From positions 20,249 to 69,512 of the forward strand of contig JAIDWS010000034.1 of the NCBI GenBank assembly GCA_029059055.1: a stretch of DNA of 49,264 nucleotides, in the 5' to 3' direction. Below the pieces are notes generated by a model. The model was not told the origin of the DNA, ran no database searches, and worked only from the letters and a program-made list of their open reading frames with translations. Within the stretch, counting starts at the first letter, position 1; each line of letters begins with the position of its first letter. Source of the stretch: Alphaproteobacteria bacterium. Lineage in GTDB: Bacteria > Pseudomonadota > Alphaproteobacteria > Rs-D84. Below, piece by piece: positions 6,876 to 27,025 of this stretch. Both the position numbers and the translations under genes were made by a program.

Positions 6876-7345
6876 GTTAAATAAAAGAATGTCCCAACGG
6901 GGCATTTTTTTATTTAAACCCGTGAAACGGGATGGGTTCGAACCGTGGTTCGTCTGCGCAGTTGGCGAAAACAAGAGAAACGCAGTTTAAGCCATACGAG
7001 TGGAAAGGGACCCATCACGGCGCAACAGCGCCGTGATGGGAATTACAATCCGGCTGTCGCGCCAGAAATTCAACCGCCGTTTATCGGCGGTTTAATTTAT
7101 GTTGTGCGTACGGGATTTGAATCCGATACTGGGGTCGCCAAAACTTCATAATTGGGCAAGATTTTATTCCACAAACAAAATCAATAACATATTGAAAAAT
7201 CTTACTAAAAAATCAATTTTGCTTGCCGAATTTAATCGTACGGTTAAATTCAATGCAACTTTAACCCGAAAAACCGACCTGTGTCAAGGTGCTTTTACGC
7301 CGAATTTAACCGTAGGTTTTTATGCGTATACCACAAGGGTCGGGA

Positions 7346-22804: not shown

Positions 22805-22891
22805 AGAAAAAATCCCGGGTTTCCGGGATTTTTTATTGCCTGTGAAATGGTTCTTATGGATTCAAATTTGCGGGCGCGACATAATGTCGGC

Positions 22892-23983
22892 ATGACATTC
22901 CAAAAACTTTTTTCCGCGTTACTGATTGGCACTGTCGCAATTGCGCATACCAATACGGGACACGCATGCACCGGCATCACATTGGCCCCAAAAGATAAAT
23001 CTGTTGTCGTCGCCCGCACCATTGAATGGTCCGGCAGCGAAATGACCAGCCAATACGTCATCGTCCCCCAGGGATACACCCAAAAATCGTTCGTCCCCGG
23101 CGGCCAGAAAGACGGCCTGGAATTTTCTGCGCTGTACGGATACGTCGGGCTGGCCGTCGAAGAACCCGAATACGTCGTCGAAGGATTGAACGAAGCGGGT
23201 CTGTCGGCGGGTTTATTCTATTTCCCCGGATATGGCCAGTACCAGGCGTACGACCCGGCCGATAACGCAGAAACCATTTCAGATTTTCAATTGGTATCAT
23301 GGATTTTGTCGCGCTTTTCCACCATCGACCAGGTCCAAGAAGCCATCAAAGACGTCCGCGTGGTCGGCATAGACCCACGTTCATCCACCGTGCATTGGCG
23401 CATCGCCGATTTTACCGGCCGCCAGGTGGTCTTGGAAATTACCGGCGGTGTGCCGCATTTCTATGAAAACACACTGGGGGTTTTGACGAATGCCCCGGGA
23501 TTTGAATGGCAAATGACCAATTTAAATAACTATGTCAATCTGGCCCCCGGTACCGCCGGCCCGACCAATATCCGCAATCTGCATATGACAGCATTTGGCG
23601 GCGGCAGCGGTATGTTGGGATTGCCCGGGGATGCAACACCACCGTCACGGTTTGTGCGCGCCGCGTTCTATGCCGCGACCGCTGTGCCGCAAAATACCGC
23701 GTACGGCGCCGTGATGCAGGCGTTTCATATCCTGAATAACTTTGACATTCCGGTGGGTATCCAATACCCCATCGACCAGGTCCCCACCCCCATGCCCAGC
23801 GCGACGCAATTTACCGCCGTCACGGACATGACCAATCGGATTCTGTATTACCGCACCATGTACAACAGCGTTATTCGGGCAATCGACCTGTCGAAAATCG
23901 ATTTTGGCGATGTTACGTACCAGACACATCCGCTGGACGCAATACGGGAACAAACCGTCATACAGATTACACCAGACGCATAA
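22892..23983 (+). CDS. Choloylglycine hydrolase / penicillin V acylase family Ntn-hydrolase (paralog 1)
   Basis: Signal peptide then catalytic CTG; ART.E; GLNEAGL; TNAP; GLPGD.TPPSRF. Confidence 0.9.
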   Translation: MTFQKLFSALLIGTVAIAHTNTGHACTGITLAPKDKSVVVARTIEWSGSEMTSQYVIVPQGYTQKSFVPGGQKDGLEFSALYGYVGLAVEEPEYVVEGLNEAGLSAGLFYFPGYGQYQAYDPADNAETISDFQLVSWILSRFSTIDQVQEAIKDVRVVGIDPRSSTVHWRIADFTGRQVVLEITGGVPHFYENTLGVLTNAPGFEWQMTNLNNYVNLAPGTAGPTNIRNLHMTAFGGGSGMLGLPGDATPPSRFVRAAFYAATAVPQNTAYGAVMQAFHILNNFDIPVGIQYPIDQVPTPMPSATQFTAVTDMTNRILYYRTMYNSVIRAIDLSKIDFGDVTYQTHPLDAIREQTVIQITPDA

Positions 23984-24048: not shown

Positions 24049-24831
24049 ATGAATAAAAACAAAATTCTGATTTATGACGATTATGGGGTCGGCGATACAA
24101 AAATATTGGGCCGCGCCATGGGGGACTATTTTATCCCGCGCGGTATTGAAATTCATACGACAAACGCCCGCGATATCATCCATCGTTGGGCATTGAACGA
24201 CAATGTTGCCGCACTGGTCATGCCGGGCGGGCGCGCCATCGGGTACCAGGCCCGATTACACCCCCACGGCAACAAAAAAATTACAGATTGGGTTATGAAC
24301 GGCGGGGTGTATTTTGGCATCTGTGCCGGGGCGTATTATGCGGCCGAACGCATTATATTTGAACCCGACATCCCAGAATTGGCCGTACAGCAAAACGGTG
24401 GATTGGGCCTGGTATCTGCGGACGCGATTGGCACATTACACCGGGAATTGAACATCGCCCCATATCGGGCCGATACCGCATCCATGGCCGCACCACAAAT
24501 CGAATGGGTGGCGGACGGACGTCTGCATCTATCATATTATCATGGCGGCCCATATTTTCAGCCGCGCGGTAACAATATGGAAATATTGGCACAATACGTA
24601 CTGGACGATGGGGACCGACCGGCCATCGTGGCACAACGCGTTGGCAATGGGCGCGTCATTGCATCGGGCGTCCATGTGGAAGTATCCGGCCCCAGCCTGG
24701 CCGCGACATTTGCCCACCCAATGGCCATTGAACCCCATGCGCGTCATGTGGCCCGCACATTACAGCAATATGAAACATATCGAAAATCGTTATTTGACAA
24801 AGTCATGAACGAAATCATTTCGCAGCGATAA
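24049..24831 (+). CDS. BPL-N (class I glutamine amidotransferase-like) protein
   Basis: IY.DYGV, LVMPGG, GG.Y.GICAGAYY, Y.GGP.F and SGVH.E motifs. Confidence 0.82.
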   Translation: MNKNKILIYDDYGVGDTKILGRAMGDYFIPRGIEIHTTNARDIIHRWALNDNVAALVMPGGRAIGYQARLHPHGNKKITDWVMNGGVYFGICAGAYYAAERIIFEPDIPELAVQQNGGLGLVSADAIGTLHRELNIAPYRADTASMAAPQIEWVADGRLHLSYYHGGPYFQPRGNNMEILAQYVLDDGDRPAIVAQRVGNGRVIASGVHVEVSGPSLAATFAHPMAIEPHARHVARTLQQYETYRKSLFDKVMNEIISQR

Positions 24832-24926
24832 AAATAAAAAAAGGCAGATAAAAATCTGCCTTTTGGTTGGGTACGTTCATTGTACCACCGCGCCGCGACC
24901 CACGCAATAGGAACGAATTTCCATAT

Positions 24927-25352
24927 CTATTCAATAACAACCGTCTGGGGGGCATTATCAAAATTGATATTATTACCCATGGCGGACAACATATCCGTGT
25001 AATCATAGACACCTGTGGGCTTTTTATCGCCGGCGGGCACCGGGCGCGCATAATTGATATACGTTTTTTTGTGCCCGGACATATTTTTGTCTGCGTCAAA
25101 GATTATGATGGTAAATTCATCACCAGAAACCCATTCTTTACTGCCGGACACCAGGTTACTTTTTCTGTAATACCACGTTTCTGTACCGTTTTTGTTTATA
25201 ATTTTATTATACGGTTCCCCGAATGCACCCCAGACGCGATTCTGGCTGATTTGTTCATGCCGATACGAATCCACAATTTTGCGTTTATCGGACGCACACC
25301 CACAAATCATCAAACACACGGCCAGTAAAAACATATTCTTTATGATATTCAT
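24927..25352 (-). CDS. Lipoprotein, SmpA/BamE-like motif
   Basis: Lipobox ICGC; FGEP......G.ETWYY; lies in the tRNA-Gln accessory region. Confidence 0.7.
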   Translation of the reverse strand: MNIIKNMFLLAVCLMICGCASDKRKIVDSYRHEQISQNRVWGAFGEPYNKIINKNGTETWYYRKSNLVSGSKEWVSGDEFTIIIFDADKNMSGHKKTYINYARPVPAGDKKPTGVYDYTDMLSAMGNNINFDNAPQTVVIE

Positions 25353-25529
25353 TTTGTATCCCCCATATTTGAACAATCCCATCGCCCAAAAACCAAAATT
25401 TAAACGCCCATACAGGGCGTTTGAATTTTGGTTGTGCCTGGCGTGCAATCCGCGAACCGATATTTATCAGGATTTAATAAAAATCGGTGATGAAATTGAG
25501 AATGTTAAACAAATATTAGGTGGTCGGGG

Positions 25530-26732
25530 TTAGTAATCATCGTTTTGATGCATCTGATATTTTATTATTGTTGCCTCCATTTGTTTAACAATTTCTGATA
25601 CTTTGGCGCGCACGCCGTTTGGGTTGATAACATAGTCACCTTGCTCGGTCTGTATCGCGGTTGATTTTAATATGTCGTTCAATTCTTGTTGCCAATTTTT
25701 GCGTATCATAAACAACTGATTGTTTTCCAATACACACGCATACACGCCGGCAATATATGGTGCGGCAGAACTCTCGCCGCCAGCTACTCTATATTGCCAG
25801 CCGTTTGATTCCAACGGTGTTGTACGCATATTGGTTGGAATGCCAATTCTTTTGTCTGGACCAAACGGCAGATTCATCATGCGAATTGTTTCATCACCTG
25901 CAGCCCGAACATTTGGTTGAATATTCGTCATGTTTGGATTGTTACAAGGCATAAAATCACGGCCGGATAGTGTGGCGGCATTCATATAATCAGATGTGCA
26001 TAAAATTATCTTCACACCGTCTGATTCCAATTGGTCCAGTAAAGCACAAACCTCGGGCGAATGCTTTTTCCGCGCACCCCAACTGCACGACAGAATATTT
26101 ATTTTATTTTCTGGTTTTTGTGCCCGATTGAAATCGATTACATTTTTCAGAATCTGGGTAATGTCTTTATCAAACTTTTTACGGTCTTGGTATGACACCT
26201 TGGTGAAATAATAAACATTCGCATCCGGCGCGATGCCAGTGCTTTTCCCAACCAGTTGCCCCATAACCATACTGGCATGTTTGTTTTGGGGCATTTTCTG
26301 GTCGTGTAAAGGTCCTTGAATAAACTTTATACTATCGGCATATTCTGGGTTGGTGGCGTCCAACATATTGTCTATTACCGCGATGTTTATACCACGCCCG
26401 GTTGCGCCGTTTGGTTTTCCGGCCGGTGCCTTGGCGCGTTCCATTATGGCCAGTGGATTGACCCCAGCCGGCATTTTGTCTGGTGACGGCCAAATTACAT
26501 TTGTGGTCCAACCACGAATTCCGGAACAGGGTAAGGATTCTGTGGGCGCATAGTCAAACAAATGTTTATATTCGCGCAAATCCAGTTCAGACAGGTCGTG
26601 ATAGTCCAATATATGCGCATCTTTAATTTCGTCAATACTGTGAACTTTGATGTACTGCACGCCTTGTTGTGCGGCATTTTTTTGTTTCAGACTGGTTATC
26701 GCATGGTAAAATTTCTTTATATAATTATTCAT
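25530..26732 (-). CDS. S8 (subtilisin-like) serine peptidase
   Basis: G.GINIAVID (Asp), HASMV (His), GIAPDA, S.SWG, GESSAAPYIAG (Ser); AT-rich; no signal peptide. Confidence 0.85.
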   Translation of the reverse strand: MNNYIKKFYHAITSLKQKNAAQQGVQYIKVHSIDEIKDAHILDYHDLSELDLREYKHLFDYAPTESLPCSGIRGWTTNVIWPSPDKMPAGVNPLAIMERAKAPAGKPNGATGRGINIAVIDNMLDATNPEYADSIKFIQGPLHDQKMPQNKHASMVMGQLVGKSTGIAPDANVYYFTKVSYQDRKKFDKDITQILKNVIDFNRAQKPENKINILSCSWGARKKHSPEVCALLDQLESDGVKIILCTSDYMNAATLSGRDFMPCNNPNMTNIQPNVRAAGDETIRMMNLPFGPDKRIGIPTNMRTTPLESNGWQYRVAGGESSAAPYIAGVYACVLENNQLFMIRKNWQQELNDILKSTAIQTEQGDYVINPNGVRAKVSEIVKQMEATIIKYQMHQNDDY

Positions 26733-26951
26733 CTATTAGCCTTTGGGTCAATAATACCAGATAGTTCAATATATTGCAAAATTGCTCATGACGAATTCGT
26801 ACTTATAAGAAAGACTGGTTTTCTAGTCTTTTTTGTTTAATTGGTTCGAAAGTCAGCAAAAATTGTCATTTTTCAAAATCAAGCTTTCGAACTCCGCACA
26901 ATGCTTGCGCATCCAACTAAAAACCGCCCTTTTGGGCGGTTTTGTCTATCT

Positions 26952-27025
26952 TGGTTGGGGCAGCTGGATTCGAACCAACACTGACGGAGTCAGAGTCCGG
27001 AGTTCTACCGTTAAACTATGCCCCA
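26952..27025 (-). tRNA. tRNA-Gln(CTG)
   Basis: Minus strand TGGGGCATAGTTTAACGGTAGAACT...CTCTGAC...GGTTCGAATCCAGCTGCCCCAACCA; terminator at about 26919-26943. Confidence 0.95.

Follow-up and report, generated by a model that had tools for sequence, protein, structure and literature searches.

A recombinase-less cassette with ends like those of a serine recombinase island behind a tRNA-Gln gene of a small-genome gut bacterium

Behind a tRNA-Gln(CTG) gene of a small-genome gut bacterium (998 kb, 95.8% complete) lies a 1,523-bp unit (25429-26951 in the window, that is, in the whole analysed stretch of 49,264 nucleotides) that we read as a recombinase-less cassette held between both ends of a tRNA-targeting island of a large serine recombinase (LSR). 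According to this reading, to which we assign a probability of roughly 0.7, the cassette was likely inserted at the tRNA gene's 3' end by a helper LSR, and a tail encoded by the cassette would complete that enzyme upon joint excision. The original prediction had envisaged a stack of two units at this place; the one with an S8 peptidase gene is an insertion, but the boundary of the other at 24864 is not an att end. What is present is one genuine LSR-type recombinase-less cassette and one coincidental boundary, not two stacked cassettes.

The comparison covered 257 genomes of the genus, likely Enterousia, the own genome included. G-numbers denote genus genomes (G000 being the own genome), L-numbers loci, and C-numbers contigs of the own genome. 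Records that share the distal arm pattern described below belong mostly to Candidatus Enterousia or other gut Alphaproteobacteria; the runs X4-X20 gave small shares only and are uninformative on habitat. Reduced-genome gut lineages of this kind are said to be the subject of a published paper.

The S8 unit as an insertion

The unit holds a single gene, the cargo, which encodes a subtilase (S8) peptidase of 400 aa (25530..26732, minus strand; PF00082, E 1e-11), and contains no integration or transfer genes. This gene and the lipoprotein gene of the other proposed unit are both present, as had been claimed; the description of the S8 unit as AT-rich is correct in that its GC content is low, yet this is not distinctive (the two proposed units have 41.7% and 42.7%, the window 49.6%). 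The tRNA-Gln region is flanked by the MacB and BPL-N genes. The BPL_N-domain gene (24049..24831, plus strand) was tried as a comparative anchor and dropped, being present in 0 of 36 and later in 1 of 256 genus genomes (2 of 257 with the own genome, the other being G081). The tRNA-Gln gene was taken instead, and a tRNA search across 151 genomes yielded 30 tRNA-Gln loci for comparison.

In the closest relative, G081, the alignment shows an empty site: tRNA-Gln is joined straight to a hairpin and the lipoprotein gene, the break falls at the CAACCA core, and no S8 unit is found in the 20-kb region of that genome. Thus both ends of the S8 unit fall on the core, as the original prediction required of true breakpoints. 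The segment 25380..25428 (minus strand; hairpin 25402-25422), which adjoins the tRNA in G081 and resembles what follows tRNA-Gln in many relatives, is the native sequence behind the tRNA, displaced by the insertion. In the strain X2, whose sequence is close to that of the window on both sides of the S8 unit, one contig covers the lipoprotein side as far as 25433. Another follows the proximal hairpin up to 26957 and there passes into a different arm of this kind (88% likeness, with other organisms as a possible source), and further contigs carry related arms at 25428-25475. The S8 gene is uncovered in X2, yet no contig bridges the gap; hence this strain is not counted as evidence of S8 absence. 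The proposed join of 26951 to 25429, the junction of a circle or of excision, did not turn up in the contigs of X1-X4, a search confined to contigs.

Homologs of the S8 gene occur in 60 of the 257 genomes, and the three closest sit in complete cassettes in G279, G263 (83-84% identical) and G280 (69%). The G263 cassette lies behind a tRNA-Gln(TTG)-type repeat and that of G280 at tRNA-Glu(TTC), with the core CTGCCA, so that the S8 cassette of the window recurs at two other tRNAs in relatives. The homolog in G218 has a Glu-type proximal end, and cassette ends are absent around five further homologs with 63-66% identity. Conversely, ends 84-86% identical to those of the window unit surround an HNH gene in G064. 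The S8 cassette of G263 (L201) has a mutated distal core, the first tail codon being a stop, and may be immobilised.

The distal arm and its coded tail

The target, tRNA-Gln(CTG) (26952..27025, minus strand), has an attB-type arm in its 3' 25 nt, with GTTCG 24 nt from the CCA end, and its antisense strand encodes WLGQLDSNQH*, the end of the integrated form of the LSR in relatives. At the other end of the unit, the 30-nt segment 25429..25458 (minus strand; core CAACCA at 25434-25429) is a distal arm of the attP type. Its GTTCG stands at a distance of 29 nt from the CCA end and thus 5 nt farther out than that of the tRNA, the shift by which attP differs from attB. The pattern of this arm, built from arms found in the present analysis, matches 117 of the 257 genus genomes, the own included, as against none for a reversed-pattern control; in viral contigs there were 0 matches. 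The copies of the tRNA end noted originally are real (TGGTTG at 26952 and 25429, TGGTTGGG at 24864), and so are the terminator hairpins at 26920-26943, 25402-25422 and 24839-24864, which lie 8, 6 and 0 bases ahead of the respective cores on the plus strand. Their treatment as three equivalents fails: the copy at 25429 has a conserved arm of 30 bp, and the one at 24864 has neither GTTCG nor a recombinase-type tail.

Across the distal arm, a start-less frame of 34 codons (25429..25533, plus strand) begins WLCLACNPRT, ends GGRG* and is predicted to be the C-terminal LSR tail of the excised form. Such a frame had been pointed out before; it is there, but reads WLCLACNPRTDIYQDLIKIGDEIENVKQILGGRG*, four residues longer than first given. 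We collected 76 distinct complete units that lack an LSR (median 933 nt, 47 cargo families). Over tail codons 11-22, stops occur in 2 of these units in the tail frame, compared with 66 and 67 in the other frames; among 140 distinct distal ends, the same codons contain stops in 5 in the WL frame, in 116 and 117 in the other frames of the same strand, and in 35-74 in the frames of the opposite strand. The pN/pS ratio of the tail (codons 11-20), computed from 1,206 related pairs, selected by identity of their DNA, is 0.25, as compared to 1.06 and 1.47 in the other frames; an earlier value of 0.32 came from a peptide-filtered subset (91 of the 140 ends) and is superseded by this unfiltered one. 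The 76 units and the 1,206 pairs share ancestry, so that the counts overstate independence. These patterns indicate that the cassette tail is under coding constraint.

The tails differ in register by multiples of three, with 37 units short, 5 long and 34 unclassified. The five clade-B-like island tails inspected are in the long register, as is the tail of the window. A clade-B LSR that reads into a short, cassette-type tail is represented by the database protein P0022, a 213-aa fragment, and five remnant frames likewise run from a clade-B LSR into a short-type tail. In the predicted structure of P0022 the coiled coil is confident and the tail is helical at pLDDT of about 45-70; a fold search with it returned generic coiled coils and was uninformative on the tail. 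Pfam has no family for the three tails compared with it. As to recombinases with WL...RT tails, for which the original prediction proposed a search, there are islands that end in this way and the P0022 fragment, but no full-length LSR with a cassette tail was among 21+13 database matches.

The proximal end

The tRNA-proximal end of the cassette (26843..26951, minus strand) is a non-coding relic of LSR 3' coding sequence that comprises the hairpin 26920-26943 and an inverted repeat; it was considered as a coding frame and rejected as such, with stops in 51-69 of the 76 units per frame. The inverted repeat (26843-26893, 51 bp: AGTTCGAAAG-N31-CTTTCGAACC) lies 58 nt from the core. Inside LSR genes it takes a 52-bp form 80 nt from the core, over the SSK..LLSN codons; thus, it is 22 nt, or about two helical turns, nearer to the core in the cassettes, and a phased binding role of the repeat is our guess. 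A repeat of 50-52 bp at 58 nt is found in 68 of the 76 LSR-less units, units being defined by a repeat at 50-60 nt. At seven loci, 55-70 LSR codons (72-89% identity) are retained and the rest of the gene is missing.

Zinc-ribbon motifs are located at 16-24 in attP and 5 bp nearer to the centre in attB, according to Rutherford et al. (PMC3783163, as far as the accessible part of that paper goes). Applied to GTTCG, this A118 numbering would place the crossover at the CA that starts CAACCA. The consensus of the 68 ends shows no mirrored motif at 16-24 on the primed side, taking GTTCG as the putative motif, from which the true motif of the LSR may differ. The lack of a mirrored binding motif at the A118-model distance suggests an atypical recombination site.

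Helper islands and mixed arrays

In autonomous islands the LSR gene crosses the recombination core: when integrated, it ends in the antisense strand of the tRNA, and an in-frame alternative tail lies at the far end. The cassettes have kept the far arm and the tail, together with some 110 nt from the 3' end of the LSR gene. These comparisons of sequence show that the ends of the S8 unit derive from LSR islands.

PF07508 matches were obtained in 84 of 151 genomes. At 8 loci, selected among about 150 genomes for a PF07508 match beside tRNA-Gln(CTG), an LSR of ~500 aa reads into this tRNA and ends in WLGQLDSNQ, and 6 of these 8 islands close with a WLT..RT arm; an LSR reads into tRNA-Gln(CTG) in 7 further genomes as well. 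The likeness to the alternative C-termini of large serine recombinases, pointed out in the original prediction, is hence matched on both sides, by LSRs that read into tRNA-Gln and by islands that end in WL...RT tails. Clade-B islands closing with WLC-type arms like that of the window are present at tRNA-Gln(CTG) in G228 (9.2 kb) and G235 (13.4 kb) and at tRNA-Met in G238 (11.8 kb), and related arms close islands at tRNA-Pro and tRNA-Glu. The island LSRs of G228 and G085 have the domains PF00239, PF07508 and PF13408, and the helper LSR matches the A118 integrase at E 8e-5. The G228 island further encodes a 199-aa resolvase, a DUF3768 protein and a cytosine methylase.

At least one cassette unit is carried by 32 of the 71 tRNA-Gln(CTG) loci examined. 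Members of the cassette family stand in tandem with an autonomous element in G228, G235, G237, G220, G004 and G238; the copy in the window does not. Where tRNA-Gln(CTG) arrays are mixed and hold complete cassettes, the LSR island lies proximal to the tRNA in each of the 4 cases; L179 and L261 show the same order, so that all six mixed arrays found with complete cassettes agree. At none of the loci retrieved does a cassette separate the tRNA from a whole LSR gene. There are also arrays without any LSR, comprising up to 5-6 units, and unit number varies between arrays. The array parse retains false arm matches (for example, L064 with 88 nt, L262 with 190 nt, and L080), and the set of 76 units was defined more strictly.

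The term 'integrase-less' is apt for the S8 unit, inasmuch as there is no LSR in the unit and no close LSR homolog in the genome. The own genome encodes two LSRs, one of which reads into tRNA-Glu(TTC), and neither is close to the Gln-type enzyme; a search of this 95.8%-complete genome for a close Gln-type LSR gave 0 matches at 1e-20, the best having 20% identity. Accordingly, the helper was likely transient, or else it is unassembled. At C11:48300-49920, an LSR in a 540-aa frame, of another subfamily (ending in GFRT...LAAPTGFEP), reads into tRNA-Glu(TTC); the far end of its island was not located in a quick look.

Proposed mechanism and alternative explanations

The movement of such a cassette can be envisaged as follows. 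The crossover would occur at the CA that opens CAACCA, or at CT or GA in the Glu and Asn/Pro types. A CA crossover would let one type of cassette enter tRNA-Gln(CTG), tRNA-Gln(TTG) and one tRNA-Met, and cassettes with a CT core would enter tRNA-Glu. A helper island would insert itself on the tRNA side of the cassette, next to the tRNA; if excision then took place at the far arm of the cassette, it would yield a composite circle, in which the LSR is finished by the cassette tail, and after re-integration the helper could leave alone. Co-excision with a tail supplied by the cassette would account for the coding constraint on the tail. We consider it likely that the S8 cassette travels with a helper element.

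The foremost alternative, which we deem unlikely, is that S8-type cassettes excise and integrate alone as small circles, with an LSR acting in trans, the tail frame being merely inherited from the parent islands. That most units have both ends conserved, the inverted repeat keeping its distance of 58 nt in 68 of 76, that LSR-free arrays exist and that the same cassette occurs at different positions and tRNAs all agree with such movement. It leaves unexplained, however, why units lacking an LSR keep an open frame with so low a pN/pS; moreover, the five clade-B-like island tails have a register longer than that of most cassette tails, and at none of the loci retrieved is a cassette closer to the tRNA than a whole LSR gene. 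Co-excision in cis agrees at least as well as movement in trans with the conserved tail frame and with the sequence in which elements follow one another in mixed arrays.

It is less probable still that the unit is an immobile, decayed island and that cargo passes from one such scar to another when their shared ends recombine homologously, whereby the tails would be refreshed. In 12 pairs with cargo at least 90% identical, the ends are less alike (medians 0.80, 0.88 and 0.87) than the middle (0.95), which suggests that ends are also exchanged, by some other route. This faster divergence of the ends, the occurrence of the same ends with different cargo and the reverse, the existence of decay intermediates and the mutated core of the G263 cassette would be natural for decayed islands. 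The precise empty site in G081, the strain-level change at the cores and the differing unit numbers of arrays are at odds with immobility and favor the cassette reading.

The lipoprotein region and the match at 24864

The second unit of the original prediction was the lipoprotein region (24864-25428), whose gene (24927..25352, minus strand; 141 aa) is SmpA/OmlA(BamE)-like as judged from language-model features only and is found at high identity solely in G081 among the 257 genus genomes. This region has no GTTCG distal arm, no W..R tail and no proximal inverted repeat; its far end consists of an orphan promoter and leader, so the claim of a second cassette finds no support, and the region would rather be the displaced neighbour of the tRNA. 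The orphan promoter with a ribosome-binding leader of the choloylglycine-hydrolase type (24859..24918, minus strand; ATTCGTTCCT...TACAAT...CAACCAAAAGG), which has no gene after it, includes positions 24864-24871, where the tRNA end is matched. It is separated from BPL-N by a hairpin terminator (24839..24864, no strand assigned), AAAAGG being common to hairpin and leader. At five loci, the leader ATTCGTTCCT..TA(C/T/A)AAT..ACCAA..GG runs into the start of a choloylglycine-hydrolase-like gene; among 42 such genes, the strict form of the motif stands upstream of 9, and the ACCAA..GG site is found with 8. AACCAAAAGG has 5 copies in the genome, 3 of them directly before an ORF.

CCCAACCA alone has 86 copies in the genome, or 0.043 per strand-kb, so that ~0.09 would be expected in 2 kb. 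The copy at 24864 is the only one of the 86 to pass a strict test for an adjacent hairpin, which makes it more than plain chance, though it is otherwise explained by the orphan leader. Judging from these sequences, the 8-bp match is best read as part of a ribosome-binding leader whose gene was lost. Its reading as the end of a tRNA-linked repeat was dropped once the leader matched sequences upstream of choloylglycine-hydrolase genes. What counts against the leader reading is that the region is 95.5% identical to that of G081 (96.9% in the coding part), compared with 72-89% for the five flanking genes tested, which suggests a recent exchange.

That the lipoprotein region is nevertheless a mobile second cassette, with a degenerate or pseudo att site at 24864, is very improbable: its excess of identity to G081 and the 8-bp match with a hairpin retained in both genomes would suit such an element, but it lacks arm motif, tail and inverted repeat, the match belongs to the leader that precedes choloylglycine-hydrolase genes at the five loci, a genome without the region at that core did not turn up (among the 257, only G000 and G081 have BPL-N and the lipoprotein gene), and X2 retains the 24864 junction intact.

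Choloylglycine-hydrolase-like genes (window 22847-23983 and 42 loci) have in common an upstream motif of the TTCCT type, some 25 nt ahead of the -10 box. They are often found 200-800 nt from tRNA-Gln(CTG), on either side.

Other repeats at tRNA genes

Gene-less units of 140-260 bp, sometimes in tandem, stand behind many tRNAs of the own genome, for example at 6876-7090 in the window (tRNA-Arg ACG) and on contigs C6, C10, C11, C15, C16, C29, C33 and C38. In this order, they comprise a hairpin, a degenerate tRNA end in inverted orientation and 13-20 bp that repeat the tRNA 3' end, and they make up a second, T-loop-type repeat system that is interleaved with LSR cassettes in relatives. A conserved hairpin unit stands behind tRNA-end copies on C10, behind tRNA-Gly(CCC), and at L041, L063, L074 and L182; on C10 and at L041 it is followed by a small ORF that, we presume, starts like a GIY-YIG nuclease. 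Further arms with W..R tails are located in the own genome at C28:67493 and 69036 (window ~47245 and ~48788), C29:64929 and C29:72325, at tRNA-Asn, tRNA-Gln(TTG) and tRNA-Glu(CTC). In G016, G076, G106, G075 and G064, additional partial copies of tRNA-Gln with a split close to the anticodon loop point to a third insertion system at this tRNA. On C38, two permuted tmRNA calls lie 18 kb from each other, which could reflect a duplication or an assembly artefact.

Implications and comparison with known systems

Cassettes of this kind explain how gut bacteria with genomes of ~1 Mb keep changing the accessory gene set at their tRNAs, and, owing to cores of only 6 bp, they are likely missed by repeat-based island finders. 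If the tail requirement is true, an element that is not itself autonomous contributes a portion of the enzyme of its helper. As natural integrases, moreover, the LSRs seem to accept the 3' end of a tRNA regardless of the downstream sequence. As a tentative generalization, which we would not yet bet on, Enterousia might run an integron-like exchange system on serine recombinases, with ~1-kb cassettes that carry the missing C-terminus of the helper under purifying selection, such that the passenger must switch on its driver, with the central dinucleotide routing cassettes to tRNAs and an inverted motif pair in the integrase gene replacing the missing half-site.

Accretion and an attP inside an integrase gene are each known; for their combination no published match was found, and a literature search, with most subscription journals and supplements outside its scope, returned no paper on LSR-less tRNA cassettes with integrase tails. 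The resident tyrosine integrase IntI of an integron is absent beside the cassette, the two PF00589 matches of the genome being at C33 and C28:2976, more than 40 kb from tRNA-Gln; the cassette ends are explained as pieces of an LSR gene, as against integron attC sites. The integrase of the myxophage Mx8 is of the tyrosine type. Its attP lies inside int, and upon integration the recombinase gene acquires a different 3' terminus, reportedly with a change in activity, so that the gene is split as it is here; passenger cassettes with spare tails are not described in the accessible sections of that paper (PMC6070905).

The att sites of the A118/LI type show the same 5-bp shift of a motif between attP and attB as GTTCG does here, but in our case the motif is visible in one half-site only, and a second, inverted pair lies 58-80 nt inside the element (PMC3783163, in part). 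The ssrA islands of Dehalococcoides (DsiB/DsiA) are likewise in tandem at the 3' end of an RNA gene, and the integrase module, present in 16 of 31, comprises a ~540-aa serine integrase on the reverse strand beside attL and a ~200-aa PinR-like protein, to be compared with the 199-aa resolvase of G228. There, however, a 20-bp repeat results from insertion in the tmRNA T-loop, whereas here a 6-bp core lies at the tRNA CCA end, and neither a switch of tails nor a coding constraint on islands lacking the module is mentioned in the passages on these islands (PMC3146451).

In tycheposons, cargo elements pile up at the tRNAs of streamlined genomes, the new pushing the old outward, as they do here, but, in the part of the preprint available, 910 of 937 use tyrosine recombinases and each has its own integrase, unlike the cassettes described above (bioRxiv 10.1101/2020.12.28.424599). 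The cassettes also resemble CIMEs and their tandem accretion with ICEs/IMEs: such elements have no integration or transfer genes, keep attL and attR, stand in tandem at the end of a target gene and can move in cis with a neighbour, as the cassette would (PMC5704250, in part). Both att ends of a CIME have their counterpart here, since the arm and the proximal end match those of autonomous islands and the empty site falls at the core; unlike with ICE-linked CIMEs, no transfer system was identified. Moreover, in the accessible text, CIMEs are described as decayed, whereas the units considered here form a standardised ~1-kb family with conserved ends, associated with a serine recombinase whose tail the cassette would encode (PMC5704250).
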